A DNA stretch of 64,000 nt. Source: Dictyostelium discoideum (taxonomy: Eukaryota). This document shows positions 1,771 through 48,517 of this stretch, piece by piece. The notes beneath the pieces were generated by a model. The model had not been told where the DNA came from. It saw only the letters and a program-made list of their open reading frames with translations, and did no database searches. The position numbers and the translations under genes are program-made. Position 1 is the stretch's first letter. Each line of letters opens with the position of its first letter. The stretch is from positions 3,200,001 to 3,264,000 of the forward strand of contig CM000155.2 of the NCBI GenBank assembly GCA_000004695.1. Reading direction: 5' to 3'.

Positions 1771-3360
1771 ATGGCCGGTGATTTAACTCCTTCATTATTT
1801 TTGAAATATGGTTTTGGTGGTGCTTTGGTATGTTTAATATATTATTAAAAAAAAAACACAAAAAAAAAAAAAAAAACACAAAAAAAAAATGTTGAAAATC
1901 TTACACCACACACAAAATGATCGTTTTTTTTTTTTTAAATTAAATTTTATTTCATATAATTAATCAAAAATTATTTAAAACAAAAAAAAAAAAAAAAAAA
2001 AAAAATATCATTTATTTCTTTGAATAAATTAATTTAATTTAAATAATAATAATAATAATAATAAATAGAGTTGTTCAATTACTCACAGTCTTGTAGTCCC
2101 ACTTGATGTCGTTAAGACTCTCCTCCAAACCAACCCAGGTAATTATTAATATAATTGACAATCACAATCACAATCAATATATATTATATAATAAGAATTC
2201 ATAATATTAATAAATAAAAAAAAAAAAAAAAAAAAAAAATAATTAAAAATAAAGGTAAATACACTGGTATGATGAACGGTTTCAGCACCGTCATTAAGGA
2301 ACAAGGTCCATCTGGTTTATTACAAGGTTTAGGACCAACTGCTGTTGGTTATGCCTTACAAGGTTTCTTAAAATTCGGTTTCTATGAAGTCTTCAAAAAG
2401 ACCTACGCTGATGCTGTTGGTGAAAAAGCCGATCAATTCAGAATCCCAATTTGGTTAGCTGCCTCAGCCACTGCTGAAGTTATTGCTGATATTGCTTTAT
2501 GCCCAAATGAAGCCGTTCGTATTCGTTTAGTTGCTGAACCAACTTTCGCTAAATCACCAGTTGAAGCTTTCGGTAAAATCTTCAAACAAGAAGGTGTCCT
2601 CGGTTTCTACAAAGGTCTCCCACCAATTTTATTAAAAGTAAGTAGTTTTGTATTTAATTTATCAATAAATAAATAAATATACATATACTAATATACACTT
2701 TTTATTTTTATTATTATTATTTTTATTATTATTATTATTTAAATTGGTAATTACAGCAAGGTATGTGAAATTTTTAAAAGATAAATTGTAATTTTTTATA
2801 AATATATATGTAGGTATTTTACTAACAACAACAATTATCCCATTTTATCAATTCAAATTTGAACAAATTTAAAATTATAAATAGTCCCATACACTATGGC
2901 TAAAGTAAGTTGGATAAAATATAATATTAGAATATTTAAAATAATAGTAATCATATTAATATTAATAATAATAATAATATTTTTAAAATTATTTTAGTTC
3001 GCTGTTTTCGAATTTACTGCTGAAAACGTTTACAAAGGTTTAGCCGCCAGTGGTAAACCAAAGGAATCATTAACTGATGGTCAAAAACTCTCTGTTTCAT
3101 TAGGTTCAGGTATTGTTGCAGGTATTGTTGCTGCTATTGTCTCTCAACCAGCTGATACCATTTTATCAAAGATCAATCAAGAAAAGACTGATGGTGGTGT
3201 TGTTAAAGCAATCGGTAACATCATGAGACGTTTAGGTGTTCGTGGTTTATTCTTAGGTCTCCCAACCAGATGTTTCATGGTTGGTACTCTTACTGCCGGT
3301 CAATTCTTCATTTATGATGGTATTAAACAAATGTTAGGTCTCACCCCAGCAAAGAAATAA
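1771..3360 (+). CDS. Mitochondrial phosphate carrier (SLC25A3/Mir1-like mitochondrial carrier family), 6 exons including a 4-nt micro-exon
   Basis: Exons approx 1771..1827, 2069..2138, 2255..2637, 2757..2760, 2885..2904, 2998..3360, with GTATGT/GTAATT/GTAAGT donors and AG acceptors. Spliced product: MAGDLTPSLFLKYGFGGAL|SCSITHSLVVPLDVVKTLLQTNPG|KYTGMMNGFSTVIKEQGPSGLLQGLGPTAVGYALQGFLKFGFYEVFK...GFYKGLPPILLK|Q|VPYTMAK|FAVFEFTAENVYKGL...IYDGIKQMLGLTPAKK*. The KQVPYTMAKF segment matches the phosphate-carrier consensus RQIPYTMMKF. Three carrier repeats are present. Confidence 0.8.
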
Positions 3361-3790
3361 ACAATTTTTAAAAAATAAATAATTATTTCCTTTTTTCAGT
3401 ATTAATAATAATAATAATATAATAATAATAATAATAATAATTTATTTGTTTTCTTTTTTTTTTTTTTTTTTTTAATTGTATATTAATTCTAAGTTTTAAT
3501 AGATATATTAGTTTTAATATATCTCCAATAATTACTCCAACTATCGATAAATCCAATTAAAAAAAAAAAAAAAACAAAGATGATACTCCCAACAATCCAT
3601 TTTGTATTATTTTATTATTGGAAATTGATTGATTTTATTTGGTGATGTAAAAATAATTTGAAGTACAATACCTGATAATAATGGTTCATCTGATTCTTCT
3701 TTAATTATTTGTCCTGTGAATGTTAAACATTATTTATTATAGACAAAGAGGTTTTCTGCATTAACAGTAACTGGAATTAGAACGATAGGA

Positions 3791-3866
3791 GTTATCACAA
3801 CAACGAAAGATTTTTACACTAACTTAGATCTAAGTTAGTGTAAAAATCGTTCGTTGTTGTGATAAC
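3791..3866. repeat. 76-bp near-perfect palindrome (38-bp arms, 1 mismatch, centred on AGATCT), followed by a GC-richer tail to about 4030 with CCAATGG/CAGTGGCAA motifs
   Basis: gttatcacaacaacgaaagatttttacactaacttaga|tctaagttagtgtaaaaatcgttcgttgttgtgataac, read directly from the sequence. The local composition is far less AT-rich than the flanks. Confidence 0.85.
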
Positions 3867-4160
3867 CCGATTCACTAGCATGGTTCCAATGGTAGTACTA
3901 GCATGGGTTCAGTGGCAATAACTTGGATCCAATGGCAACTCAAACAAGAATCCCATAACAGCACTAACTTTAATATAATGGCAGCACTGACTAACTCGGA
4001 TCTAAATAGGGTAATACCACTGCTATAAAAGACTAATTAAGTTTATTCAAATGGTTTAATCAAATTTTTTACATTAAATTTTTCTTTTGTTTAATCCATA
4101 TGCTTAGTTTAATTGACTTCCTTCCAAAAAAAAAAAAATAGAATAAACATTCCACCATAT

Positions 4161-6066
4161 TTACCGACCATATTGTAATAGGTCACAGAGGTAGCTAAAT
4201 TCCAACCATAGGAAGATGTGAAAACTTCTTGTTTTGAAACCGGTTAAAGCTTTTGGAGGATGAGAGTTACAGTTATCGATTTCTGCCATAATATAGGTTC
4301 CAGTACTATCAGTATAAGAGTAGTCATCACTTGAAACTGGTGCATAGTAACCAGCTGGTGTAAAGTAAATTTGATAATTAGTTGGTAATAACATTTGAAT
4401 TATTGCAGTTTGGTAAGCTAAAGAAGCTATGGTAGAAATTTTTTGAAAGTCTAATCCATTGATATTGAGTGAGGATGGATTATTGGTTGGTAAGAAACAT
4501 AATGCAAAGGTTTTACTCATCATACCCCAATCTTGTAAAATGGTATTTTTAATTCTTTGAGCATTTGCCATTTCATTTTCATAATTTTCATTTAAATGAT
4601 CATAGAGTTTACTTAATGTAACTTGATAGGTTGATGGGCCTGAATCATTACTTTCAGCATATAATTCACCAAATTGTACTGCTGACTCACTAATGTTTGC
4701 AATTATTGAACCACCAATTGGTATCTCTGAAATAATTGCATAAAAAACACTGGTAATTGCATCGGTGTAATCTCCATTAACAACTTGGTCAGATGACATA
4801 TCAACATTGATTAAATTTGCCAAGTTTGTTAAATTTGTACTACCTTGACTAAATAATTTACTATAAAAACCAGAATAGTTATCAAATACTAAACGGACAT
4901 TGATTGCGTAGGTGAGTTCATTTTTGATTTGATTTTGAACATATGAAAAATCTTCAGTTGAATGAATTGATGATGGACAAGTTGCATTGGTGACATTAAC
5001 ATAGAAAATTTCTAAATTAACATTAATACTTGTATAAAGTGATCTAATGTCATCAGTATAACCATTTGTTGCATCATCACTAAGGTATTGATATGATGCT
5101 AATAAATCACCACTTGTGTAAGCTGGAAATGGTTCTGGTACTTCACTAACAATTTGGTTTAATGAATAGGTTGGATTTGCAATCCATTGGAAATTAATAT
5201 CACTAGCACTACTTGGTTGAGCTAATACACAATTAACAGTTGAATCAACTCCAAGTTCACCAACGAATCCAATACATAAATTTGGATAATATTGATTGAA
5301 TATTTGATTATTTTCGTTGATACCCCATTGTTGCATTAGATCATTTGCTTTGTAAACATTGGTATTTAAATGATAGTTTGTTTTACTACCATCAATTGAT
5401 GGACCAATATCTAATACTAAATTACCATCCAAACGTGATAAAATGTGACCATCGTTTGTCATTTGCCAAATTTGACCTATTGATTTTGCTTGAACTTTAT
5501 TCATTACTACACTAGTATTATATGATGTACTATTATTTAATACACTTAGACCCCAATAATTATTATTGGAATCCAATTGTTTGCTTTGAAAGTAACCCCA
5601 ATTACCAGTTGGAATTGGTGCTCTTCTAAAAGTTGTCCATTTTTGAGTTGCGTTTCCATTTAAAGGTGCAACACAAATATTCAAACTGTCGATATCAAGG
5701 TATTTACCATTACCTTGGTTGAATTTTATTATTTGTAGTATCAATTGTCCAAATTTGAGTTTTTGAATTTGAATTAAGTTGTACTAATTCAACAAAATAA
5801 CCACCTGATGAAACATCTAAAACAAAATTACCACTGGATGTAAAGATATGACCATCATCAGAAAGAAGCCATGTTTGAATTGACTCAGATGCTACACATT
5901 GGAATGTATTACTGGTTGATAAATAATATGGTGTAATATTATTTGAACCTTTGAATAAACTTTTTGCTACGAATGAGTATTTTGGTTTTGAACTTGTACT
6001 TGTACTTTTTAATTGTTTTTCTTCACTTTGATTTGAAGATTTTGAAATATCTTCAATATTTATCAT
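4161..6066 (-). CDS. Ricin-B (beta-trefoil, QxW repeat) lectin-domain protein with a long C-terminal domain. The reading frame is interrupted near 5710-5745, so this may be a frameshifted gene or pseudogene
   Basis: Two overlapping minus-strand ORFs (5710..6066 and 4161..5744). Repeated QxW motifs ([37 protein letters not shown]) and DGHIxxxxGNxVLD repeats typical of ricin-B domains. The overall architecture resembles the Dictyostelium Cup (calcium up-regulated) lectin family; that link is recalled from memory, not verified. Confidence 0.6.
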
Positions 6067-36988: not shown

Positions 36989-38571
36989 ATGATTTTATTA
37001 ACACTTTTATATTTAATTATTTTTTATATTATAATAGATTTTATAAAAAAAAATTATAAAACAAAAAATCAATTACCATCACCATTAGGAATTGCATTAC
37101 CAATTATTGGTCATTTACATTTATTACGTACCGATCCATATAAAACATTAGCTAAAGCATCGAAAAAAACAGAACATGGTATTTTAAAATGTTGGAATGG
37201 TGAGCATTTAATGGTTGTAGTTGATAATCCATCAATAATTAAACAAATGTATGTAAATACAAATAATTTTACAGATAGACCACAAACCAAAGTATTTGAA
37301 ATCATTTCAAGAAATTATAAAAATAGTGGTTTTGCAAATGGTGAAAAATGGAAACATCTCAGAGGTTTATATGCACCAAGTTTTACAAAAATTAAATCAA
37401 GACCACATGAAAATATAATTTTAAAATATGTAAATTTTGAAATTAAATCTTTAAAAAATCATGCAATTACAAATTCAATTGTAAGTTTGACCCCCCCCCC
37501 CCTTTTTTTTATTTATTTTTAAATTTTAATTAATAAATCATTATTAACTTTTTCTTTTTTATTTTCTATTAATAATAAAATAAATAGTATAATCCATTTT
37601 TAATTGAAAATATTAATTCATTTGGTACAAAAGTTATTACAGAAATTATATTTGGTAGAGAGTTTAGTGAAAATGAAGTTTACTCATTAATTGGACCAAT
37701 GAATAAATTATTTGGTATATTGGATACACCATTTCCATCAGAGAGTATATCATTTTTAAAACCATTTTATAGAAGATCTTATAAAGAATGTGATAAACAA
37801 TGTGAAGAATTATTTAAATTGGTTGAAAAAGTTTATGATGATCATTTATTGAATCTAGACAAAGACAACCCAAAAGATGTAATGGATGTAATGATTGTTG
37901 AAACTGATTTCAAAGAAAAGGATCATGTAATTTGTATATGTTGTGATTTATTAATGGGTACAAAAGATACATTCAATACAATTGTTTTATGGTTTTTTGT
38001 ATTAATGATAAATTATCAAGATGTGCAATTGAAGGGATATCAAGAGATAATCAAGGTTTTGGAATGCACAGGTCGAGATCATGTAACAATTGAAGATATC
38101 GATAAATTACCATACATTGATGGAATTATTAAAGAAATCTCAAGAATTCATCCAGCAGGTCCTTTATCAGTACCAAGAACTGCAATCAATGATATAATGA
38201 TCAATGGTTATTTCATTCCAAAAGGTTGTCATGTTTTTCAAAATACTTATGGTGCAGTTTATAATTATATGAAAGAATCTGATGAACCTTGTAAAATGAA
38301 ACCAGAAAGATGGATTGAAAATGAAAAATTAAGAAAAGATGGTAAATTAGACCCAACTAATGATTTAGCATTGATTTCATTACCTTTTTCAAGCGGAATT
38401 AGAAATTGTCCTGGTGTTGGTTTTGCAGAGTATGAATTATTCTTATTATTTTCAAATATCATTTTAAATTTTCATTTATCAAGTCCAAATAATCTAAAAC
38501 TCAATGAAAGTGGTCATTTTGGTCTTACAATGAAACCATTTCCATTTTTAGTTGATTTAAAATTAAGATAA
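36989..38571 (+). CDS. Cytochrome P450 monooxygenase, 2 exons, about 492 aa
   Basis: Exons approx 36989..37480 and 37588..38571 (donor GTAAGT, phase 0). N-terminal membrane anchor, then the P450 Pro-rich hinge LPSPLGIALPIIGHLHLL. K-helix ExxR region EISRIHP. Heme-binding loop FSSGIRNCPGVGFAEYELF (FxxGxRxCxG). Confidence 0.85.
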
Positions 38572-38573
38572 TA

Positions 38574-38631
<58 letters not shown>

Positions 38632-38980
38632 TTTATTTTTATTTTTATTTTTATTTTTATTTTTATTTTTATTTTTATTTTTATTATTATTATCTTCTTT
38701 TTTAGTAAATATTTTTTATACAACATATTAATAAAATTAAAAATCATTTATTTTTCTTTATTTTTTTTTTTTTTTTTTTTTTATTTTTTTTTATTTGTAT
38801 ATAATATTTTAAAATCGATTTTTTGTAATTTGACATAAAAAAAAAAAAAAAAAATAAAAAAATAATAAAATTAAAAACAAAAATAAAAATAAAAACTCAC
38901 TTTCTTTTTTTTTTTATTTTAGAAATTATTATTATTTGTTTCTTTTTTAAATATAAAAAATTAAAAAAAAATTTTTAATA

Positions 38981-39230
38981 ATGTCACAAAATGAATATGA
39001 CAAAAGTAATTCACTTTTAAATATATTTTCAATAAAAAAAATAACGTTAGAGAATGAAACTCTACTAAATTCAAAGATACCATGGGAAATAATTAAGAAT
39101 GGTAATGTTATTGATTTAGGTTGTGGTAATGGATGGTTTTGTAGAGAAATGATTGAAAAAGGTGTAAACCAAATTATTGGTGTTGACATTTCTGAAAAAT
39201 TAATTAAAAAAGCAATAGAATTAAATAAAG

Positions 39231-39279
<49 letters not shown>

Positions 39280-39460
39280 AAAATTAAAATATTATGTCAC
39301 TGATTTAGATAATTTCCAACTTAATGAAACTCCTTTTAATTCATTAATTGGTTCATTTGATTTTGCATTTAGTTCATTTGTAACTCATTATCTATCAGAT
39401 TTAGAATCATATTTTAAAAAAGTTTACAATTTATTAAAATCAAATAATAATAATAATAAT

Positions 39461-39530
<70 letters not shown>

Positions 39531-39889
39531 GAGGTAGTAGTTTTATATTTTTAGCAGAACATCCAATGAGAACTTCAACAAAATGTATTGAAAATAAATT
39601 TATAAATCATAAATTTGAAGGTGATGAAAATTCAAAAATGGTTTGGCCAATTTCAGATTATAGTGAAGAAGGTAAAAGAGTAACTAATTGGGCTGGATCA
39701 AGTGGAATTATTAAATATCATTATACAATTGAAACTTATGTAAACACTTTAATTAAAGTAGGTTTTAAAATTGATTATCTAGGTGAATTAAATCTTGTAG
39801 AAAGACAATTACAATTTAGTAATTCTGGTGATATATCTATAGAAGCAAATAGACCATTTACACTATTTATTAAAGTGTCAAAAAATTAA
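38981..39889 (+). CDS. Class I SAM-dependent methyltransferase, paralog 1 (302 aa), with two in-frame poly-Asn insertions
   Basis: Motif I VIDLGCGNGWFCREMIEKGVNQIIGVDISEKLIKKA (DxGxGxG plus acidic residue at the end of beta2). About 85-90% identical to the ORF at 41196..41987 apart from the (AAT)n insertions [19 protein letters not shown] and [35 protein letters not shown]. Confidence 0.75.
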
Positions 39890-40642
39890 TAAAAAAAAAA
39901 AAAAAATAAAAAAAAAAAGTTAAAAAAGTAAATAATTTAAATTTAATAATAAATAATTAATAAAAAATAAAAATAAATGTAAATTTCATTTCATTATCAC
40001 AAAAATAAAATATATACGTTATTTTATTAATTTAAAAATTATTGTACATGTTGTGCCAAGAACTTTTATTAGAAAAATAAGATGAAATAAAATAAAATGA
40101 TCTTTATTTTATAATTTTCTTTTTAAATTTTTATTATTATTAAAATTATGAATTTTAATAATAAAATATTCAATCGACATTAATAAGTCCACGTGGTTTT
40201 TACCCACGTGGGGTGAGAAAAGTTTAATTATATAAATTTTGATAATACAAGATTTTATTGCAATAATCCAATTATAGTATTTTGATAATAAATAATTAAA
40301 TTGCATTATTCGACTAATTAATTAAATTATTTTCAATTTTATTTTTTATTTAATTTTAAATACAACATATTTAAAACTGGTTATCTTTAAAAAAAAAATA
40401 AAAAAATATTAATAGTTTTATAGTGTTTTTAAAAAAAAAAAAAAAAAATTTGGACGGATAATTGTGAAAAATTTGGACGGATAATGGTGAAAAAATAAGG
40501 ATAATCAAAAAAAACCCTTTTAATACAAAGATGGAAAAAGGGAAAACATATTTTTTAAAACTATGGAATTATCATAATGTTATTATTTCATGGATAAGGA
40601 TAATCAAAAAAAACCCTTTTAATTCAAAGATGGAAAAAGGGA

Positions 40643-40681
<39 letters not shown>

Positions 40682-41195
40682 TATTAGATTGAATTTATGG
40701 ATTTGGAGATTTTATATCGATACAAATATTTGGTAATTTTAATATGAAGCATTAACGATAAGCCCGTTGTGTTGCCATTGTGTAGCAAGTATTTCATGCA
40801 TCATATAGGTTCAATACAAATTTTCTATTTATAATTAACAATACCCCTTGTAATTTCTAATCTATGAATGTTTTAGTGTGAATTTTTTTTACAAAATTTC
40901 CAAGTCACCACTAAATAATAAAAAATAATAATAACTCTCTGTAAAAAAAAAAATATTGTTTAGGTTAATTATTACATATATGTGTTATTGTTTATTTAGT
41001 ACTTGATTGTTGCAGAAAAAAAAATATTTAAATTTAAATTTTACAGATTAAAAAAACTCATCGATGAATTTAACAGGTAAAATTAATATGATCCCGTATA
41101 AAAAAATTGATTTGAGTAAAAAAATATAAATTAACTTTTTTTTTTTTTTTTTATTTCAAAAAACTATTATTTGTTTAATAAATAAATTTTTAAAA

Positions 41196-41987
41196 ATGTC
41201 ACAAAATGAATATGACAAAAATGATTCACTTTTTAATAAATTTTCAAATAAAAATTTAACTATAGAGAATGAAACTCTACTATTTTCAATGATACCATGG
41301 GAAATTGTTAAGAATGGAAATGTTATTGATTTTGGTTGTGGTAATGGATGGTTTTGTAGAGAAATGATTGAAAAAGGTGTAAACCAAATTATTGGTGTTG
41401 ACATTTCTGAAAAATTAATTAAAAAAGCAATAGAATTAAATAAAGATAATAATGAAAAATCAAAATATTATGTCACTGATTTAGATAATTTCCAACTTAA
41501 TGAAACTCCTTTTAATTCATTAATTGGTTCATTTGATTTTGCATTTAGTTCATATTTAACTCATTATTTATCAGATTTAGAATCATTTTTTAAAAAAGTT
41601 TACAATTTATTAAAATCAAATAATAATAATGGTAGTAGTTTTATATTTTTTGCAGAACATCCAATGAGAACTTCAACAAAATGTATTGAAAATAAATTTA
41701 TTAGTCATAAATTTGAAGGTGATGAAAATTCAAAAATGGTTTGGCCAATTTCAAATTATAGTGAAGAAGGTAAAAGAGTTACTAAATGGGCTGGATCAAA
41801 TGGAATTGTTAAATATCATTATACAATTGAAACTTATGTAAACACTTTAATTAAAGTAGGTTTTAAAATTGATTATATAGGTGAATTAAATCTTGTAGAA
41901 AAACAATTACAACTTTGCAATTCTGGTGATATAACAATAGAAGCAAATAGTCCATTTACACTATTTATTAAAGTAATAAAAAATTAA
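41196..41987 (+). CDS. Class I SAM-dependent methyltransferase, paralog 2 (263 aa)
   Basis: VIDFGCGNGWFCREMIEKGVNQIIGVDISEKLIKKA. Tandem duplicate of 38981..39889, lacking the poly-Asn tracts. Confidence 0.75.
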   Translation: MSQNEYDKNDSLFNKFSNKNLTIENETLLFSMIPWEIVKNGNVIDFGCGNGWFCREMIEKGVNQIIGVDISEKLIKKAIELNKDNNEKSKYYVTDLDNFQLNETPFNSLIGSFDFAFSSYLTHYLSDLESFFKKVYNLLKSNNNNGSSFIFFAEHPMRTSTKCIENKFISHKFEGDENSKMVWPISNYSEEGKRVTKWAGSNGIVKYHYTIETYVNTLIKVGFKIDYIGELNLVEKQLQLCNSGDITIEANSPFTLFIKVIKN

Positions 41988-42620
41988 TTAAAGAAAGCTT
42001 TAATTTTTTTAAAAAAGTAAATCATTTTTATATTAAAAAAAAAAAATAAAAAAAATAAAAAAAAAAAAATAAAAAAAATAAAAAAAAAAGATTTTTTAAT
42101 CTTTTTTTTTTTTTCACCTATCCTTTTTGACAAATTAACACAGCAATTTCAAAAGTTATGTTTAAAAATTAATTATTTATTTTTTTTTCCCCACCATTTT
42201 AGCTTTTTTTTGATACACACAGAATAATAAAGAAATATTAATAAAAATAAAGAAATAATAATAAAATTCTTTTTTTTTTTTTTTAAAAAATTATTATTTT
42301 ATTAATTACCAATCACGTAGTTTAGTGTGCTCGAAATTGATAAAATTATTATGTTAACAGACACGAAATATGTTCGTTTTACAATTTAAAAAAATAATGC
42401 AGTTTCTGTTTCTCGTTAAAATAATTGTGACCTAAACAAAAATTAAAAAAAAAAAAAATAAAAAAACAATTAAATAAAAAATAAAAATAAAAAATAAAAT
42501 AAAACTGGGATTCAAAAATAAAAGCAAGCTCTAATCTATTATAATTTTTAATTAAATATGTGTTAATCTAATTCTTCAATACACCTCTAAACTTTTCACT
42601 TATATAAAAAAAAAAAAAAA

Positions 42621-42905
42621 ATGACATTAATTGGTATACCACGTGGTACACCTCAAATTGAAGTTATGTTTGATGTTGATAGTAATGGTATTTTAAATGT
42701 TGCAGCTGAAGATAAAACTTCTAAAAAAGTTGAAAAAATAACTATCACCAATGACAAAGGTCGTCCCTCTCTAAAAGATATTAATAAAATGGTTGAAGAT
42801 GCAGAGAAATTTAAAGAACAAGATCAACAACAAATTTTGAAAGTTTATTTTACAAATTATTGCATAAATAAAAAAAAAAAAAAAGATTTACAAAATTTTA
42901 TTTAA
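42621..42905 (+). pseudogene. Internally deleted Hsp70 copy: the first ~6 codons (MTLIGI) fused to the C-terminal ~70 codons of the substrate-binding/lid region. About 93% nt identity to 44640..44860 of the neighbouring full gene
   Basis: atgacattaattggtata|ccacgtggtacacctcaaattgaagtt versus the full gene's 5' end atgacatcaattggtatagat and internal ggtatcccaccagcaccacgtggtacacctcaaattgaagtt. The deletion junction sits in a shared tggtat microhomology. The ORF ends after a diverged tail. Confidence 0.6.
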
Positions 42906-43023
42906 AATAATAAAATGAGAAAATAATATAATTTTAAAAAACCAATAGTATTTAATGTATTTTTTTAATTAAAATTATAGAAATCCTATCCCTTGTTTAA
43001 ACAAATCTAATCGAAAAATCTGG

Positions 43024-43067
43024 TGAATTTCAACTGTTTCCCAAAAATGTGAAATTTCAGAAAATTA
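43024..43067 (+). promoter_or_regulatory. Heat-shock elements (alternating nGAAn/nTTCn units) about 180-220 bp upstream of the Hsp70 ATG
   Basis: gtGAAtTTCaac (43025..43031) and tGAAatTTCaGAAaaTT (43051..43066), a three-unit HSE. Confidence 0.6.
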
Positions 43068-43241
43068 AATTTAAAAAAAAAAGCAAAAAAAAAAAAACTA
43101 TTTATATTCGCTGTTTTATTTTTAATTTCTATTATTAATTATTTCTTTTTTTTTATATTTATATATATTAATTATTTTCTTATTACTTTTTTCGTTATTA
43201 AATTTAAATTTTTAATAGATTATTAAAAAAAAAAAAAAAAA

Positions 43242-45134
43242 ATGACATCAATTGGTATAGATTTAGGAACAACATATTCTTGTGTTGGTGTTTGGTTGAA
43301 TGATCGTGTTGAAATTATTGCAAATGATCAAGGTAATAGAACTACTCCATCATATGTTGCATTCAATGATACAGAGCGTTTAATTGGTGATGCTGCAAAG
43401 AATCAAGTTGCAATGAATCCAATAAATACAGTTTTCGATGCAAAACGTTTAATTGGTAGGAAATTTTCAGATAGTGTTGTTCAAAGTGATATGAAACATT
43501 GGCCATTTAAAGTTATAACAAATAAAAACGATGATAAACCATTAATTCAAGTTGATTTCAAAGGTGAAACTAAAACATTCTCACCTGAAGAAATTTCATC
43601 AATGGTATTATCAAAAATGAAAGAAACTGCTGAATCATATTTAGGTAAACCTGTTAACAATGCAGTTATAACAGTTCCAGCTTATTTCAATGATGGACAA
43701 CGTCAAGCAACTAAGGATGCTGGTACAATTTCAAAATTAAATGTTCAACGTATCATTAATGAACCAAGTGCTGCTGCTATTGCATATGGTTTAGATAAGA
43801 AAGGTAGTAAAAGTGGTGAAATAAAAGTTTTAATATTCGATTTGGGTGGTGGTACATTTGATGTTTCATTACTATCAATTGATGATGGTGTATTTGAAGT
43901 TTTAGCAACAGCTGGTGATACTCATTTAGGTGGTGAAGATTTTGATAATCGTTTAGTGAATCACTTTGTAGATGAATTCAAACGTAAACATAAGAAGGAT
44001 ATAATGGGTAACCAACGTGCTCTTCGTCGTTTGAGAACTGCATGTGAACGTGCAAAAAGAACACTATCATCATCATCTCAAGCATCAGTTGAAATTGATT
44101 CACTTTATGATGGTATTGATTTCTATACCTCAATTACCAGAGCACGTTTTGAAGAACTTTGTTCTGACCTTTTCAATAATTGTATTGAACCAGTTGAAAA
44201 AGTTTTAAAAGATTGTAAATTGGATAAGAAATCAATAGATGAAATTGTATTAGTTGGTGGTTCAACTCGTATTCCAAAAGTTCAACAATTAATTCAAAAT
44301 CTTTTCAATGGTAAAGAATTAAATAAATCAATTAATCCTGACGAAGCCGTTGCATATGGTGCAGCAGTACAAGCTGCTATTCTATCAGGTGATAAAAGCT
44401 CAAGAATCTCTGAATTAATTTTCATTGATGTTGCACCATTATCATTGGGTATTGAAACTGTTGGTGGTGTAATGACAAACATCGTTCCAAGAAACACAAT
44501 TATCCCATGTAAAAAGACACAAACTTTTTCAACTCACACAGATAATCAAAGTGGTGTTTTAATTCAAGTTTATGAGGGTGAACGTACAATGACAAAAGAT
44601 AATAATCTATTGGGTAAATTTGAATTAACTGGTATCCCACCAGCACCACGTGGTACACCTCAAATTGAAGTTAGTTTCGATGTTGATAGTAATGGTATTT
44701 TAAATGTTACAGCTGAAGATAAAACTACTAAAAAAGTTGAAAAAATAACTATCACCAATGACAAAGGTCGTCTCTCTCTAAAAGATATTACTAAAATGGT
44801 TGAAGATGCAGAGAAATTTAAAGAACAAGATCAACAACAAAAAGAACGTATTGAATCAAAGAATAATCTTGAAAACTATATATTTTCTGTAAAAAATTCA
44901 ATTAATGACCAGAAAATCATTTCAAAACTCTCTAAATCTGATAAAAATATTATTGAATCTGAAACTGAAAGTACTCTTAAATGGTTAGAATCAAATCAAT
45001 CTGCCGAAAAGGATGAATTTAATCAAAAGATATCAGATCTTGAATCAATTGTTAACCCAATCCTTAGTAAATTCTATCAAGGTAATAATAATCCAAAACC
45101 AACCACAACTACTTTTAACCAAGATCTTGATTAA
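43242..45134 (+). CDS. Hsp70 family chaperone (630 aa, intronless, no C-terminal EEVD)
   Basis: Canonical Hsp70 signatures: [40 protein letters not shown]. Substrate-binding domain and lid present. Ends ...TTFNQDLD. HSEs upstream. Confidence 0.9.
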
Positions 45135-45643
45135 AATTAAATATATAAATTTCAGTGTAAAAAAATAAAAAAATTAAATATACATTCCATAAAGTTTTCC
45201 TTTTCCCAATCATTTCTCTACAAAACCATCCATTACTACAAATAATAATTTTCTAAAATATCAAAAAAAAAATAAAAAAAAAAAATAAAAAAAAAAATAA
45301 AAAAAAAAAAAAATTTATTAATTTTTTTTTGGAGTGACAGAATTCTGTTCTGTTCTGTGGTTGTATTTAAATTCAATTATATTCTCATTTTAATTATATT
45401 GATATTTGTAGTCATTTAAATATTTTTAGTGGTAGACTTCAAATGATCTTTCTTTGAACATTTGTTGAGTTTTGTAATATATAAAACAAATATTTATCTG
45501 TTTTGGTAACTTTTTATTTAATTGTTTTTATTTGAAAAAAAAAAATAAAATAAAATAAAGAATTAAAAATAAAAAATAAATTAGAAAATTAAAATAACGA
45601 AATATTAAATGAAAAAAGGGGTAAAAATATCTTTATTTTATTT

Positions 45644-45674
<31 letters not shown>

Positions 45675-46115
45675 GACACAGAGTTTGTGGTTTTAATAAA
45701 TAAAAACGAATTTGTTTATCATTAATTTGAAATTTCATTTTTTTATAATTTTATCCGTTTTTGTATAATTTGTCAAAAATGTATATTTATAAATGAAACA
45801 AAGAATTTGTTTACTTGAAATTCTATTGTGGTTAAATTTTTGACTTTGTAGGATTGTAATTTAAATTACAAATTATAATAATTTGGAAAAAATAGATTTT
45901 CAATTTAATTATTTTTTTTTTAAAAAAAAAAAAAAAGTATAAATTAAAAATAAATTTTAATGTTTTATTTCATTCACAAATTATTTAATTACAAAATAAA
46001 ATAACAAAAATAAAATGACACTCTTTTGTAAGAATTTAATTATATTTTTTATTTAATTTAAAAATAAAGTTACTAATTTATTTATTTTAAAAAACTATTA
46101 GCTTCAATCTCATCA

Positions 46116-46355
46116 ATGTCAAGTTCAATGACAAGCTCAAAATCCAGCTTTGCATCTTTTGGTAATGGAACAAGGGTGAGTTCAAATTCAATTGCATGTA
46201 GTGTTGACTGTGACGGCAAAGGTGTTAGCTCAGGATCAGACTTAACAGGAGGCGCTAAATCAGGTGGAGATTGTGGTGGTAAAGGAAGACCAAATAATCA
46301 TGGTCATGGTCATGAAAATTGTCATGGTGGTAAAGGTCCAGGAAATTCATGTTAA
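46116..46355 (+). CDS. Small (79 aa) Ser/Gly/Cys/His-rich hypothetical protein
   Basis: [26 protein letters not shown]...[26 protein letters not shown], with Dictyostelium-like codon usage. Low-complexity composition. Followed by a (TTTATTTA)n array at 46437..46495. Expression is unverified. Confidence 0.3.
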
Positions 46356-46432
46356 TGTTAATATTAATTTGTACTACAATGTAATATTACATTATTTAAA
46401 ATAAAATGGCGATTAAAAAAATGTGTGGAGCT

Positions 46433-46491
<59 letters not shown>

Positions 46492-46807
46492 TATATATTT
46501 TTATTTTTATTTTTATTTTTAATTTTTTTTTTATTTTTATTTATTTTTTTATTTAATTTCTTTTTTTATAACCATGTGGAAATTAAATTTTTAAATGTTT
46601 TTTTTTTTTAAAAAAAGATATTTTTTTTTTTTTATTTTTTTTTTTGATGATTTTTCATCAACACAAATAATTAATAATGAATGTTTTTGAATTAATTAAA
46701 AAAAAAATTATTTATAAATCACTTATTTATTAAAATAATATTTTATTTTATTTTATTTTATCTATATTTTCATACAGTTAAGCTTAACTTTTTACAAATT
46801 TTATAAA

Positions 46808-48517
46808 ATGCCATCAATGGGTATAGATTTAGGAACAACATATTCTTGTGTTGGTGTTTGCAATGAAAAAGGTCGTATTGAAATTATTGCAAATGATCAA
46901 GGTAATAGAACTACCCCATCATATGTTTCATTTAATAATAGAGAATGTTTAATTGGAGATGATGCAATGAATCAAGTTGCAATGAATCCAGTTAATACCA
47001 TTTTCGATGTAAAACGTTTATTTGGTAGAAAATATTCAGATAGTGTTGTTCAAAGTGATATGAAACTTTGGCCATTTAAAGTTATAGCAAATAAATTTGA
47101 TGATAAACCATTAATTCAAGTTGATTTCAAAGGTGAAACTAAAACATTCTCACCTGAAGAAATTTCATCAATGGTATTATCAAAAATGAAAGAAATTGTA
47201 GAACAACACTTGGGTGAACCTGTTACAGATGCAGTTATAACAGTTCCAGCTTATTTCAATGATAGACAGCGCCATGCAACCAAATATGCAGGTACAATTT
47301 CAAATTTAAATGTATTAAGAATTATTAATGAACCAACTGCTACTGCAATTGCATATGGTTTACATAGGAGAGGTATTGATGATATGAAAGTTTTAATAAT
47401 CGATCTAGGTGGTGGTACATTTGATGTTTCATTATTCAATATAGAAGATGGTATATATGAAATTTTATTATCAGGTGGTGACAATCATTTAGGTGGTGCG
47501 GATTTTAATAATCGTTTAATGAATCACTTTATAGATGAATTTAAACTTAAACATAAAAAAGATATAACCAATAATCAACGTGCTATTTTTCGTTTAAGAA
47601 CTGCATGTGAACGTGCAAAGAGAACTTTATCAATTTCATCATTAGCATCGATTGAAATTGACTCACTTTATGATGGTATTGATTTTTATTCAACAATTAC
47701 AAGAACACATTTTGAAAAACTTTGTTCTGACCTTTTCCATAGTTGTATCGATCATGTTGAAACAATTTTAAATAAATGTAAATTAGATAAAAGTTTAGTA
47801 GATGAAATTGTATTAGCTGGTGGTTCAACTCAAATTCCAAAGATACAAAGAATGTTTAAAGAATACTTCAATGGTAAAGAATTTAACAACTCGATTAACC
47901 CTGATGAAGTTGTTGCATATGGTGCAGCAGTACAATCTGGAGTTATTTCAGGCAAAGGTTCAAACTTTCCTCAACTTATTTTTTTAAATGTTACACCATT
48001 ATCAATGGGTATTGAAACTGTTGGTGGAATAATGACAAATCTTGTTGAAAGAAATACTCATATTCCTATTAAAAAAACGCAAACTTTTTCAACCCAATAT
48101 GATAATCAAACCAATGTTTTAATTCAAATTTATGAAGGTGAACGTACAATGACTAAAGATAATAATCTAATTGGTACATTTGAATTAAATGGTATCCCAC
48201 CAGCACCACGTGGTGTTACCCAGATTGAAGTTTGTTTTGATGTTGATATAGATGGTATATTAACAGTTAGTGCAGAAGATAAAACCACAAAAAAAGTTCA
48301 AAAAATCACCATCTCCAATATTAATGATCATCTCTCAAAAGTAGAGATTGAAAAAATGATAGTAGATGGTGAGAAATTTAAACAACAAGATCAACAACAA
48401 AAAAAAGAACTTATTGAATCAAATTATAAAATATATTGTGGTGATGAAAACACATTAGATTTTGAAATTACTCAAAAATTGTTAGGATCAGCTCAATCTA
48501 CTGAAATGAACGAATGA
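46808..48517 (+). CDS. Divergent Hsp70 paralog (569 aa) with a truncated C-terminal lid and substitutions in conserved ATPase motifs
   Basis: [24 protein letters not shown] and [14 protein letters not shown] are conserved. However QRQATKDAG is [20 protein letters not shown] is [11 protein letters not shown], and the protein ends shortly after the beta-sandwich. Confidence 0.8.

Follow-up and report, generated by a model that had tools for sequence, protein, structure and literature searches.

Results

Three Hsp70-derived units in tandem

We analysed a 64-kb stretch of Dictyostelium discoideum chromosome 6 (hereafter the window; ~20% G+C) that carries a tandem Hsp70 locus. The original prediction had described this locus as a full-length gene, a divergent lid-truncated paralog and an internally deleted derivative, and this description holds: the three open reading frames (ORFs) lie exactly where they had been placed, at 42621..42905 (94 amino acids, aa), 43242..45134 (630 aa) and 46808..48517 (569 aa). 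By exact-sequence look-up, all three are existing gene models on chromosome 6 of D. discoideum AX4. In the joint interpretation that we consider likely to be right, Hsc70-3 is a working full-length gene, Hsc70-4 is an altered paralog retained by selection, and the 94-codon ORF is the relic of a dying third copy, all within an array that evolves by birth and death. The units are as follows:

42603..42905, + strand: relic of a third copy, annotated as the 94-aa ORF DDB_G0293672 (Q54BE1), 'uncharacterized protein'
43242..45134, + strand: Hsc70-3 (DDB_G0293674, UniProt Q54BE0, 'hspH2'), a full-length cytosolic Hsp70 of 630 aa; exact match
46808..48517, + strand: Hsc70-4 (DDB_G0293678, Q54BD8), a divergent lid-truncated Hsp70 paralog of 569 aa; exact match

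Against the Pfam HSP70 profile (PF00012), Hsc70-3 aligns over positions 2-599 of 599 (E=2.4e-254) and Hsc70-4 over positions 2-528 (E=1.6e-208), with the lid end absent; the 94-aa ORF gives a fragment match only, to positions 460-526 (E=2.7e-18). At the DNA level, Hsc70-3 and Hsc70-4 are 82.6% identical across 1,634 nt.

Origin of Hsc70-4

We retrieved the syntenic locus from related genomes via its encoded proteins, namely a cytochrome P450 (P450), one or more methyltransferases, one or more Hsp70s, the product of a 111-aa gene, a DEAD helicase and TRM13. The loci compared were those of L001, the wild D. discoideum strains ACTFIR and ACTFIW, the 'D. cf. discoideum' strains ACTFIY and ACTFIZ, two D. 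citrinum strains, and D. firmibasis. L001 (GCA_054883475.1) is an independent long-read assembly whose proteins and relic region are identical to those of AX4, and it is probably AX2. The compared assemblies very probably derive from a study that sequenced AX2, CR116C, OT3A, M4B, S6B, the citrinum clade and others (PMC12745789). There is a single Hsp70 at the locus in D. firmibasis (626 aa), two in D. citrinum (615 aa and 556/557 aa), and one of 630-662 aa together with one of 566-569 aa in each strain of the D. discoideum group. D. purpureum P0040, considered as a further orthologue, was dropped since it is non-syntenic and of the Hsc70-1 type.

In neighbour-joining (NJ) trees, the Hsc70-4 clade is monophyletic (bootstrap 100% for protein, 97% for third codon positions) and branches after D. 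firmibasis (99-100%). Distances from Hsc70-1 are 0.40-0.52 for Hsc70-4, as against 0.15-0.19 for Hsc70-3 and the D. firmibasis copy. We propose that Hsc70-4 was born from Hsc70-3 by tandem duplication, after the D. firmibasis split and before the split of D. discoideum and D. citrinum; the divergence of D. firmibasis and D. discoideum has been estimated at 50-100 million years (PMC12745789). The C-terminal truncation is old, because the deletion of ~20 residues in lid helix B and the position of the stop codon, which directly follows …LLGSTPSAEIND in one of the two species, are both common to D. discoideum and D. citrinum. The gene would have lost early on these residues and everything past helix C, including the C-terminal -DLD co-chaperone motif, and would afterwards have evolved two to three times faster with purifying selection retained.

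Sequence and structural changes in Hsc70-4

We aligned the locus proteins to a reference panel of 94 canonical Hsp70s of 600-680 aa, which defines 337 columns that are at least 97% conserved. AX4 Hsc70-4 deviates at 66 of these 337 near-invariant columns, compared with 17 for Hsc70-3, 13 for the D. firmibasis copy and 105-110 for D. citrinum Hsc70-4. Throughout the nucleotide-binding domain (NBD), the numbering of Hsc70-4 is that of bovine Hsc70. The catalytic residues D10, K71, E175, D199, T204 and D206 are all retained in D. discoideum Hsc70-4, and in AX4 both phosphate loops are free of deviations. The changes include D160Y, A179T, D234N, R261F, R342Q (H in D. citrinum) and, in the interdomain linker, D394N; E231A is found in AX4 only. 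The hydrophobic core of the linker is retained, although the linker as a whole reads QLIFLNV rather than the canonical (D)LLLLD. The substrate-binding domain (SBD) keeps a complete beta-sandwich, and at the hinge NDKGR has become NINDH (T503S, D505I, K506N, G507D and R508H). Many residues specific to Hsc70-4 are conserved across species.

The lid truncation that had been predicted is real. There is a gap of ~20 residues in distal helix B, and the protein stops after a degenerate helix C, so that the complete A-E helical lid is lacking, in agreement with the end of the Pfam match. An AlphaFold2 model built from a 40-sequence alignment has a confident NBD (pLDDT 80-93), a weaker beta-sandwich and a lid reduced to one long helix at 511-544 and a short helix at 552-564. 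Hsc70-4 aligns to bovine/human Hsc70 over residues 2-539 (E=5.6e-233), and its best PDB matches are Hsc70/Hsp70.

Two substitutions in nucleotide-binding motifs had been singled out in the original prediction. The first, TKDAG to TKYAG (D160Y), is present in the 569-aa copy and shared with D. citrinum, but it is not a fixed feature of the gene. The second had been given as NEPSAAA to NEPTATA; NEPTATA is indeed present, within the D. discoideum group and not in D. citrinum, but the canonical motif is NEPTAAA, so the sole deviation in Hsc70-4 is A179T, and the serine is a deviation of Hsc70-3 and the D. firmibasis copy. We take D160 and A179 to be neither catalytic nor nucleotide-contacting residues in Hsc70/DnaK structures. 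Presumably, D160 adjoins K159 (DnaK K155) on the face of lobe IA to which the J-domain and the interdomain linker dock; the linker aspartate (DnaK D393) would be the partner region of this D160/K159 surface, and R342 would stack on the adenine. On these assumed positions, what has changed would be chiefly interdomain allostery and lid function, and less the catalytic pocket. An emphasis on nucleotide-binding motifs is thus only partly apt, R342Q/H, D394N, the NDKGR hinge and the lost lid bundle being more telling. The suggestion of altered ATPase or co-chaperone behaviour is supported in so far as purifying selection (see below) backs a functional but altered protein, although the catalytic residues are kept in D. 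discoideum.

Because these residues are kept, D. discoideum Hsc70-4 would be expected still to bind and hydrolyse ATP. From what is generally known of Hsp70s, a protein with neither lid bundle nor latch should bind and release clients quickly, and one that has lost the C-terminal motif would not dock tetratricopeptide repeat (TPR) co-chaperones. Coupling between NBD, linker and SBD is likely to be altered by D160Y beside K159, D394N and the change of NDKGR to NINDH. Fast exchange, altered coupling and the loss of TPR docking would so make for an Hsp70 with a specialised or regulatory role, and not for one that folds proteins in general. Alternatively, Hsc70-4 might be a redundant, conventional Hsp70 isoform that is subfunctionalised by expression only, its changes being of little mechanistic consequence. 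The catalytic residues, hydrophobic linker core and beta-sandwich kept in D. discoideum fit such an isoform, as does the confidently modelled NBD, and lid-truncated Hsp70 constructs keep partial chaperone activity in vitro. However, the distance of Hsc70-4 from Hsc70-1 is 2.4-3 times that of Hsc70-3, the -DLD tail and helical bundle are lost, R342, the NDKGR hinge, D394 and D160 are changed, and the phosphate-2 loop is altered in D. citrinum. This pattern points to changed, not conserved, biochemistry, and we regard a redundant isoform as improbable.

Purifying selection on Hsc70-4

The original prediction had named a ratio of nonsynonymous to synonymous divergence (dN/dS) of about 1 as the mark of a decaying pseudogene, and purifying selection in other dictyostelids as the mark of a kept gene. 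We estimated dN/dS by pairwise NG86 with a codon bootstrap, giving the confidence intervals (CIs) in brackets. For Hsc70-4, dN/dS is 0.47 (0.37-0.63) against D. citrinum, 0.28 (0.19-0.41) against ACTFIZ, 0.27 (0.17-0.46) against ACTFIY and 0.32 (0.22-0.48) within D. citrinum. Thus, the values for the paralog span 0.27-0.47 with all CIs below 1, and for the NBD alone the interval also excludes 1. The corresponding range for Hsc70-3 and its orthologues is 0.05-0.22 (D. citrinum 0.22, ACTFIZ 0.21, ACTFIY 0.10, within D. citrinum 0.18).

We also simulated neutral evolution of the 569-codon ORF, with substitutions only and the base composition of the window. At 0.10 substitutions per site, 0.04% of replicates kept the ORF open; at 0.16 and 0.36, none did. 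The actual ORF is intact in seven genomes that span a dS of ~0.36 and ends at a common stop, with orthologues of 566-569 aa in four other strains of the D. discoideum group and of 556/557 aa in D. citrinum. Together, the dN/dS estimates and the simulation therefore speak against the neutral value of about 1. As judged from these comparisons, Hsc70-4 is a selected gene under relaxed constraint. Gene conversion as the source of the low dN/dS, or of the TKDAG motif in ACTFIY, was considered and rejected: scans of diagnostic sites found almost no Hsc70-3-like tracts in Hsc70-4, except short ones in ACTFIZ.

A pseudogene in early decay, its ORF open merely through youth, would account for the truncation and the 66 near-invariant changes, for a dN/dS about twice that of Hsc70-3, and for the lack of expression data for Hsc70-4 in the literature that we found. 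Such a pseudogene should not, however, keep an intact ORF with the same stop across seven genomes when neutral survival is at most 0.04% even at a divergence of 0.10; nor should the CIs of dN/dS exclude 1 in all whole-gene comparisons, including that within D. citrinum, or residues specific to Hsc70-4 so often be conserved across species. How a real pseudogene at this locus looks is seen in the ACTFIY allele described below, which is full of frameshifts. Early decay is largely refuted by these observations, and we give it very little credence.

The 94-codon ORF is the relic of a third copy

The mini-copy is a composite of two parts of Hsc70-3. By blastn, 42603..42638 is 94% identical to Hsc70-3 from the poly-A leader through the ATG and the first six codons, and 42638..42834 matches 44645..44841 of Hsc70-3 at 96.4%, with only 77% identity to Hsc70-4. 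The fusion of an ATG and about six codons that had been predicted is therefore present, but the Hsp70 part corresponds to residues 469-533 of 630 and not to the last ~70 codons. Nor is it 'lid-only': besides helix A and the beginning of helix B, the segment takes in three beta-strands out of eight, and the 23 codons that come after it have no Hsp70 origin. The parts and boundaries are as follows, with a slash marking each join:

42639..42834, + strand: Hsc70-3 codons 469-533 within the mini-ORF
42835..42905, + strand: 23-codon non-Hsp70 tail of the mini-ORF
42638..42639, + strand: internal deletion junction of the relic, GGTATA/CCACGTGG, placed by base-by-base alignment
42834..42835, + strand: 3' truncation breakpoint of the third copy, ...CAACAACAAA/TTTTGAAAGTTT..., identical only in AX4, AX2 (L001) and ACTFIY (L007 9600..)
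42087..42602, no strand assigned: AX4/AX2-specific DNA of 515 nt, bounded by the methyltransferase 3' flank and the relic

At the same position, ACTFIY carries an Hsp70 pseudogene of ~1.3 kb (L007 8340..9604). Stretches of residues 1-205, 381-400 and 423-529 survive in it, broken up by several frameshifts, small indels and an AT-rich insert, and the ORF from its ATG stops after 83 codons. The pseudogene and the AX4 relic have an identical 3' breakpoint (…CAACAACAAA/TTTTGAAAGTTTATTTTACAAATTA…), from which the DNA is collinear onward into the Hsc70-3 promoter. The common breakpoint and collinear flank identify the two as alleles of a single third copy, derived from Hsc70-3 and truncated at its 3' end, of which the AX4/AX2 allele has lost codons 7-468. 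We found no trace of the mini-copy by tblastn in ACTFIR, ACTFIW, D. citrinum or D. firmibasis; in ACTFIR and ACTFIW, the methyltransferase 3' flank runs straight into the Hsc70-3 upstream region. In the Hsc70-3 tree, AX4 lies nearer to ACTFIR and ACTFIW than to ACTFIY, so the third copy is older than these strains; in the ACTFIR/ACTFIW lineage it has been lost or still segregates.

A deletion at a tggtat microhomology had been proposed for the internal junction. Both parental sites do contain TGGTAT, but joining them directly at that motif would keep 9 nt, CCCACCAGC, that are missing from the mini-copy. The junction reads ATTGGTATA/CCACGTGG, and taken literally (GGTATA/CCACG) it has 1 nt of microhomology. 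The 3' site of the ACTFIY allele is TTAATTGGTAATCCACCAGCACCACG, and its TTAATTGGTAAT agrees with the otherwise unexplained T at 42628 of the mini-copy. Since CCCACCAGC is missing, the junction arose either in a single event with 1 nt of microhomology, or by (T)AATTGGTAT recombination and a later loss of 9 nt between CCAC repeats.

Other origins for the flanking DNA were considered. A sensitive blastn search with 42087..42602 against the rest of the window and the eight related loci returned only poly-A/T matches. The 3' tail (42835..) as the start of a duplicated upstream segment, in direct repeat with 41988..42110, was rejected, the similarity being A-rich low complexity only. A processed (retro-) pseudogene was rejected too: the relic breaks off at codon 533, within the coding sequence, and does not extend to a 3' untranslated region, and there is no flanking direct repeat beyond A-rich low complexity. 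An Hsp70 fragment in ACTFIZ (L003 3233..4123) was tried as a relative of the AX4 relic; its breakpoint is different, and we count it as a relic of separate origin.

Seven nucleotides separate the relic from AX4 Hsc70-3. Six of the changes are nonsynonymous (S to M, T to A, T to S, L to P, T to N) and one is synonymous, for a dN/dS of 1.5 on 65 codons; one of the differences (N versus T) is really a change in AX4 Hsc70-3. Thus, the mini-ORF does not behave as a selected gene, being absent or frameshifted in other strains with a dN/dS of 1.5. The 94-aa peptide that had been proposed as its product is not supported, in view of the presence/absence polymorphism, the frameshifted ACTFIY allele and neutral evolution. 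We conclude that the mini-copy is a polymorphic pseudogene relic that evolves neutrally. The 94-codon unit would be the NC4-lineage allele of a third, 3'-truncated copy of Hsc70-3 that is being eroded by deletions; its frame would be open only because one deletion happened to preserve the reading frame, and would not mark a gene.

An expressed micro-protein, such as a fragment of the Hsp70 SBD with a dominant-negative or regulatory role, might be argued from the intact ORF, from an ATG set in a typical A-rich Dictyostelium leader, from the annotated model DDB_G0293672 and from the 96% identity to its parent. But two wild D. discoideum strains lack the ORF and ACTFIY has a longer, frameshifted allele in its place, the differences of the ORF from Hsc70-3 are six nonsynonymous to one synonymous with L to P among them, and it has only ~18 nt of poly-A leader in common with the Hsc70-3 promoter. 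Moreover, the product is unlikely to fold, because it consists of only three of eight beta-strands, a helix stub and a 23-residue tail encoded by A/T-rich DNA. We consider an expressed micro-protein extremely improbable. An artefact of the AX4 assembly or annotation, which an AT-rich repetitive region and an ORF called in the AX4 annotation only might suggest, is already refuted, with almost no probability left to it, by the 100% identity of 41000..43300 in the long-read assembly L001 from the same lab lineage and by the homologous ACTFIY allele with the same breakpoint.

The full-length gene Hsc70-3

Hsc70-3 is complete, with 82% identity to Hsc70-1, the linker ELIFIDV, an intact hinge, a complete lid (helices A-E) and the C-terminus -NQDLD. 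The absence of a terminal EEVD, which had been pointed out as a feature of this gene, is true but is a trait of dictyostelids as a whole: all sampled dictyostelid cytosolic Hsp70s end in -VDELD or -E(E/D)DLD (P0026, P0136, P0031, P0034, P0053, P0077 and others), and the EEVD ending is found in 115 other eukaryotic sequences of the panel. In its -NQDLD tail, Hsc70-3 has this dictyostelid motif in slightly degenerate shape; the tail of D. citrinum Hsc70-3 is -YQGK, and Hsc70-4 is without the motif. The dictyostelid -DELD/-EDLD tails imply that the clade would have co-evolved TPR co-chaperone clamps.

Hsc70-3 mRNA falls from 17.5/12.7 in vegetative cells to 2.2/3.5 at streaming (log fold change -4.0), and a knockout of the gene, renamed hspH2, is viable and develops on time with larger fruiting bodies (PMC8094536). 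Hsc70-3 would accordingly be a functional full-length paralog of the housekeeping gene Hsc70-1, somewhat relaxed in sequence, that is dispensable and is expressed during growth.

ACTFIZ Hsc70-3 (L003 6619..8607) has a run of ~32 asparagines in its C-terminal tail, for a total of 662 aa, compared with 3-7 asparagines in the other strains. This is a typical Dictyostelium homopolymer expansion, here inside a chaperone tail. At codons 170-175, the same ACTFIZ gene carries a short tract with five nucleotides diagnostic of Hsc70-4, probably a micro gene-conversion from Hsc70-4 to Hsc70-3.

The Hsc70-3 promoter block

Two heat-shock elements (HSEs) had been placed at 43024..43067. Taking an HSE to be a run of three or more adjoining nGAAn units in alternating orientation with 2-nt spacing, we detected one HSE-like site in this block:

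43024..43067, + strand: conserved promoter block upstream of Hsc70-3, with one HSE-like site, GAAATTTCAGAAA, at 43051..43063

No perfect three-unit HSE occurs in the 64-kb window. The site GAAATTTCAGAAA has two perfect units and one imperfect; it is one of 22 one-mismatch sites in the window, where 30.1 ± 5.9 are expected. In the first of the two proposed elements (GAATTTC, 43027..), the spacing is wrong (GAA-T-TTC). The two elements thus reduce to a single one-mismatch site that is not above chance. A block of ~45 nt at about -190 is conserved in AX4, ACTFIR, ACTFIW and ACTFIY, and its core, TGAAATTTCA, persists in D. citrinum within otherwise unalignable AT-rich DNA; the block is absent from the syntenic loci of ACTFIZ and D. 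firmibasis. Conservation in close relatives may lend the HSE claim modest support. We regard the block as a plausible cis-element, and as unproven as an HSE.

The surrounding region

Upstream of the array (~36990..41987 in the window, and in L002, L003, L006 and L007) lie a P450 and one to three tandem S-adenosylmethionine (SAM)-methyltransferase paralogs, with a strain-dependent copy number, and in L006 and L007 also a terpene synthase. This neighbourhood is presumably the 'candidate cluster' downstream of which the original prediction had set the Hsp70 units. In ACTFIZ, three further Hsp70 fragments (L003 2361..2727, 3233..4123 and 5100..5195) with breakpoints unlike that of the AX4 relic alternate with methyltransferase paralogs, and there is an extra full-length Hsc70-3-like gene (ACTFIZ_000418, protein P0016, 95% identical) a few genes upstream. 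The region is evidently a hotspot of duplication and deletion.

The spacer between Hsc70-3 and Hsc70-4 contains a 79-aa Gly/Ser/Cys-rich ORF (46116..46355, + strand) that matches Pfam PF05710 'Coiled' (E=1.7e-11), the family of Dictyostelium small proteins of the hssA/2C/7E type. By tblastn it is present in AX2, ACTFIR, ACTFIW and ACTFIZ, and was not found in ACTFIY, D. citrinum or D. firmibasis; given this patchy presence, it is therefore a recent insertion into the spacer, or has been lost. A (TTTA)n microsatellite of ~13 units (46437..46490) lies just upstream of the Hsc70-4 promoter region.

Discussion

The cytosolic Hsp70 array on chromosome 6 appears to be young and dynamic, and would capture three stages of gene birth and death: a working Hsc70-3, a selected but altered Hsc70-4, and a third copy dying as a relic. 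Several observations count against this interpretation. The phosphate-2 loop of D. citrinum Hsc70-4 reads DLGGVTLD (G to V in DLGGGTFD), which departs from a competent NBD; ATPase competence may therefore not be clade-wide. TKYAG is not fixed, since ACTFIY has TKDAG. NG86 is approximate on a genome of 78% A+T; the SBD-beta and lid segments of Hsc70-4 taken alone have wide dN/dS CIs, some of which reach 1; and the interspecies value of 0.47 is high for an Hsp70. In the literature we found no transcript, protein or heat-induction evidence for the mini-ORF, nor any for Hsc70-4, the only study to turn up being that of Hsc70-3 (PMC8094536), so the expression of Hsc70-4 is inferred from selection only. 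For the DNA on both sides of the relic (42087..42602 and the tail from 42835), the comparisons returned low-complexity matches only.

The novelty of the locus is low: all three units are annotated already, the history is the standard birth and death of a multigene family, and nothing here is surprising for the Hsp70 family. It is nevertheless a clean, small example of gene birth and death in which differently decayed alleles segregate among wild strains. DDB_G0293672 would be better flagged as a pseudogene fragment than as a protein-coding gene, and the annotation of Hsc70-4 should read as a lid-truncated Hsp70, specific to D. discoideum and D. citrinum, under selection. What interest remains is modest and lies in Hsc70-4 as a young lid-less Hsp70 retained by selection. 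Together with its more degenerate D. citrinum orthologue, it offers a tractable pair in a genetically manipulable amoeba with which to ask what purpose so recent a lid-less Hsp70 serves.

The mini-copy and its ACTFIY allele resemble unprocessed (duplicative) pseudogene fragments in being truncated, internally deleted, neutral and polymorphic, with one of the two frameshifted. Unlike the usual fragment of this kind, the AX4 allele keeps an ATG-initiated open frame, hence its annotation as protein-coding. As a whole, the locus is reminiscent of the Drosophila Hsp70A/B clusters and of HSPA1A/1B/1L in the major histocompatibility complex (MHC), where head-to-tail paralogs undergo birth-and-death or concerted evolution; copy-number and fragment polymorphism among strains and occasional short conversion tracts are seen here too. 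In contrast to those arrays, the copies here are strongly diverged at the DNA level and not homogenised, and one has a changed architecture.

Hsc70-3 shares the full architecture of canonical Hsp70/Hsc70 proteins (human HSPA8, D. discoideum Hsc70-1/hspB), and differs from them in its 17 deviations at near-invariant sites and its degenerate -QDLD tail. Hsc70-4 shares the catalytic residues of these proteins and aligns to bovine/human Hsc70 over residues 2-539 but, unlike them, has lost the tail, helices D and E and the distal part of helix B, and deviates at 66 near-invariant sites. Yeast Ssz1 and human HSPA14 (Hsp70L1), components of the ribosome-associated complex (RAC), have shortened or degenerate substrate-binding or lid regions, a relaxed ATPase requirement and regulatory roles. 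Hsc70-4 as an orthologue of the RAC Hsp70 is ruled out, since it nests in the dictyostelid Hsc70-3 lineage as a recent duplicate of a canonical Hsc70 that arose inside Dictyostelium group 4, after the D. firmibasis split. Tentatively, and with more doubt than confidence, we suggest that Hsc70-4 may be a very young canonical Hsp70 that is turning into an atypical, lid-less one, perhaps less dependent on ATPase activity. If so, it would be a natural intermediate towards regulators such as Ssz1 and HSPA14, held under selection while its allosteric interface changes, and the degeneration of the D. citrinum phosphate loop would belong to the same trend. Hsc70-4 is like these proteins in its loss of the lid and in that degenerating loop, and differs from them in its complete beta-sandwich.

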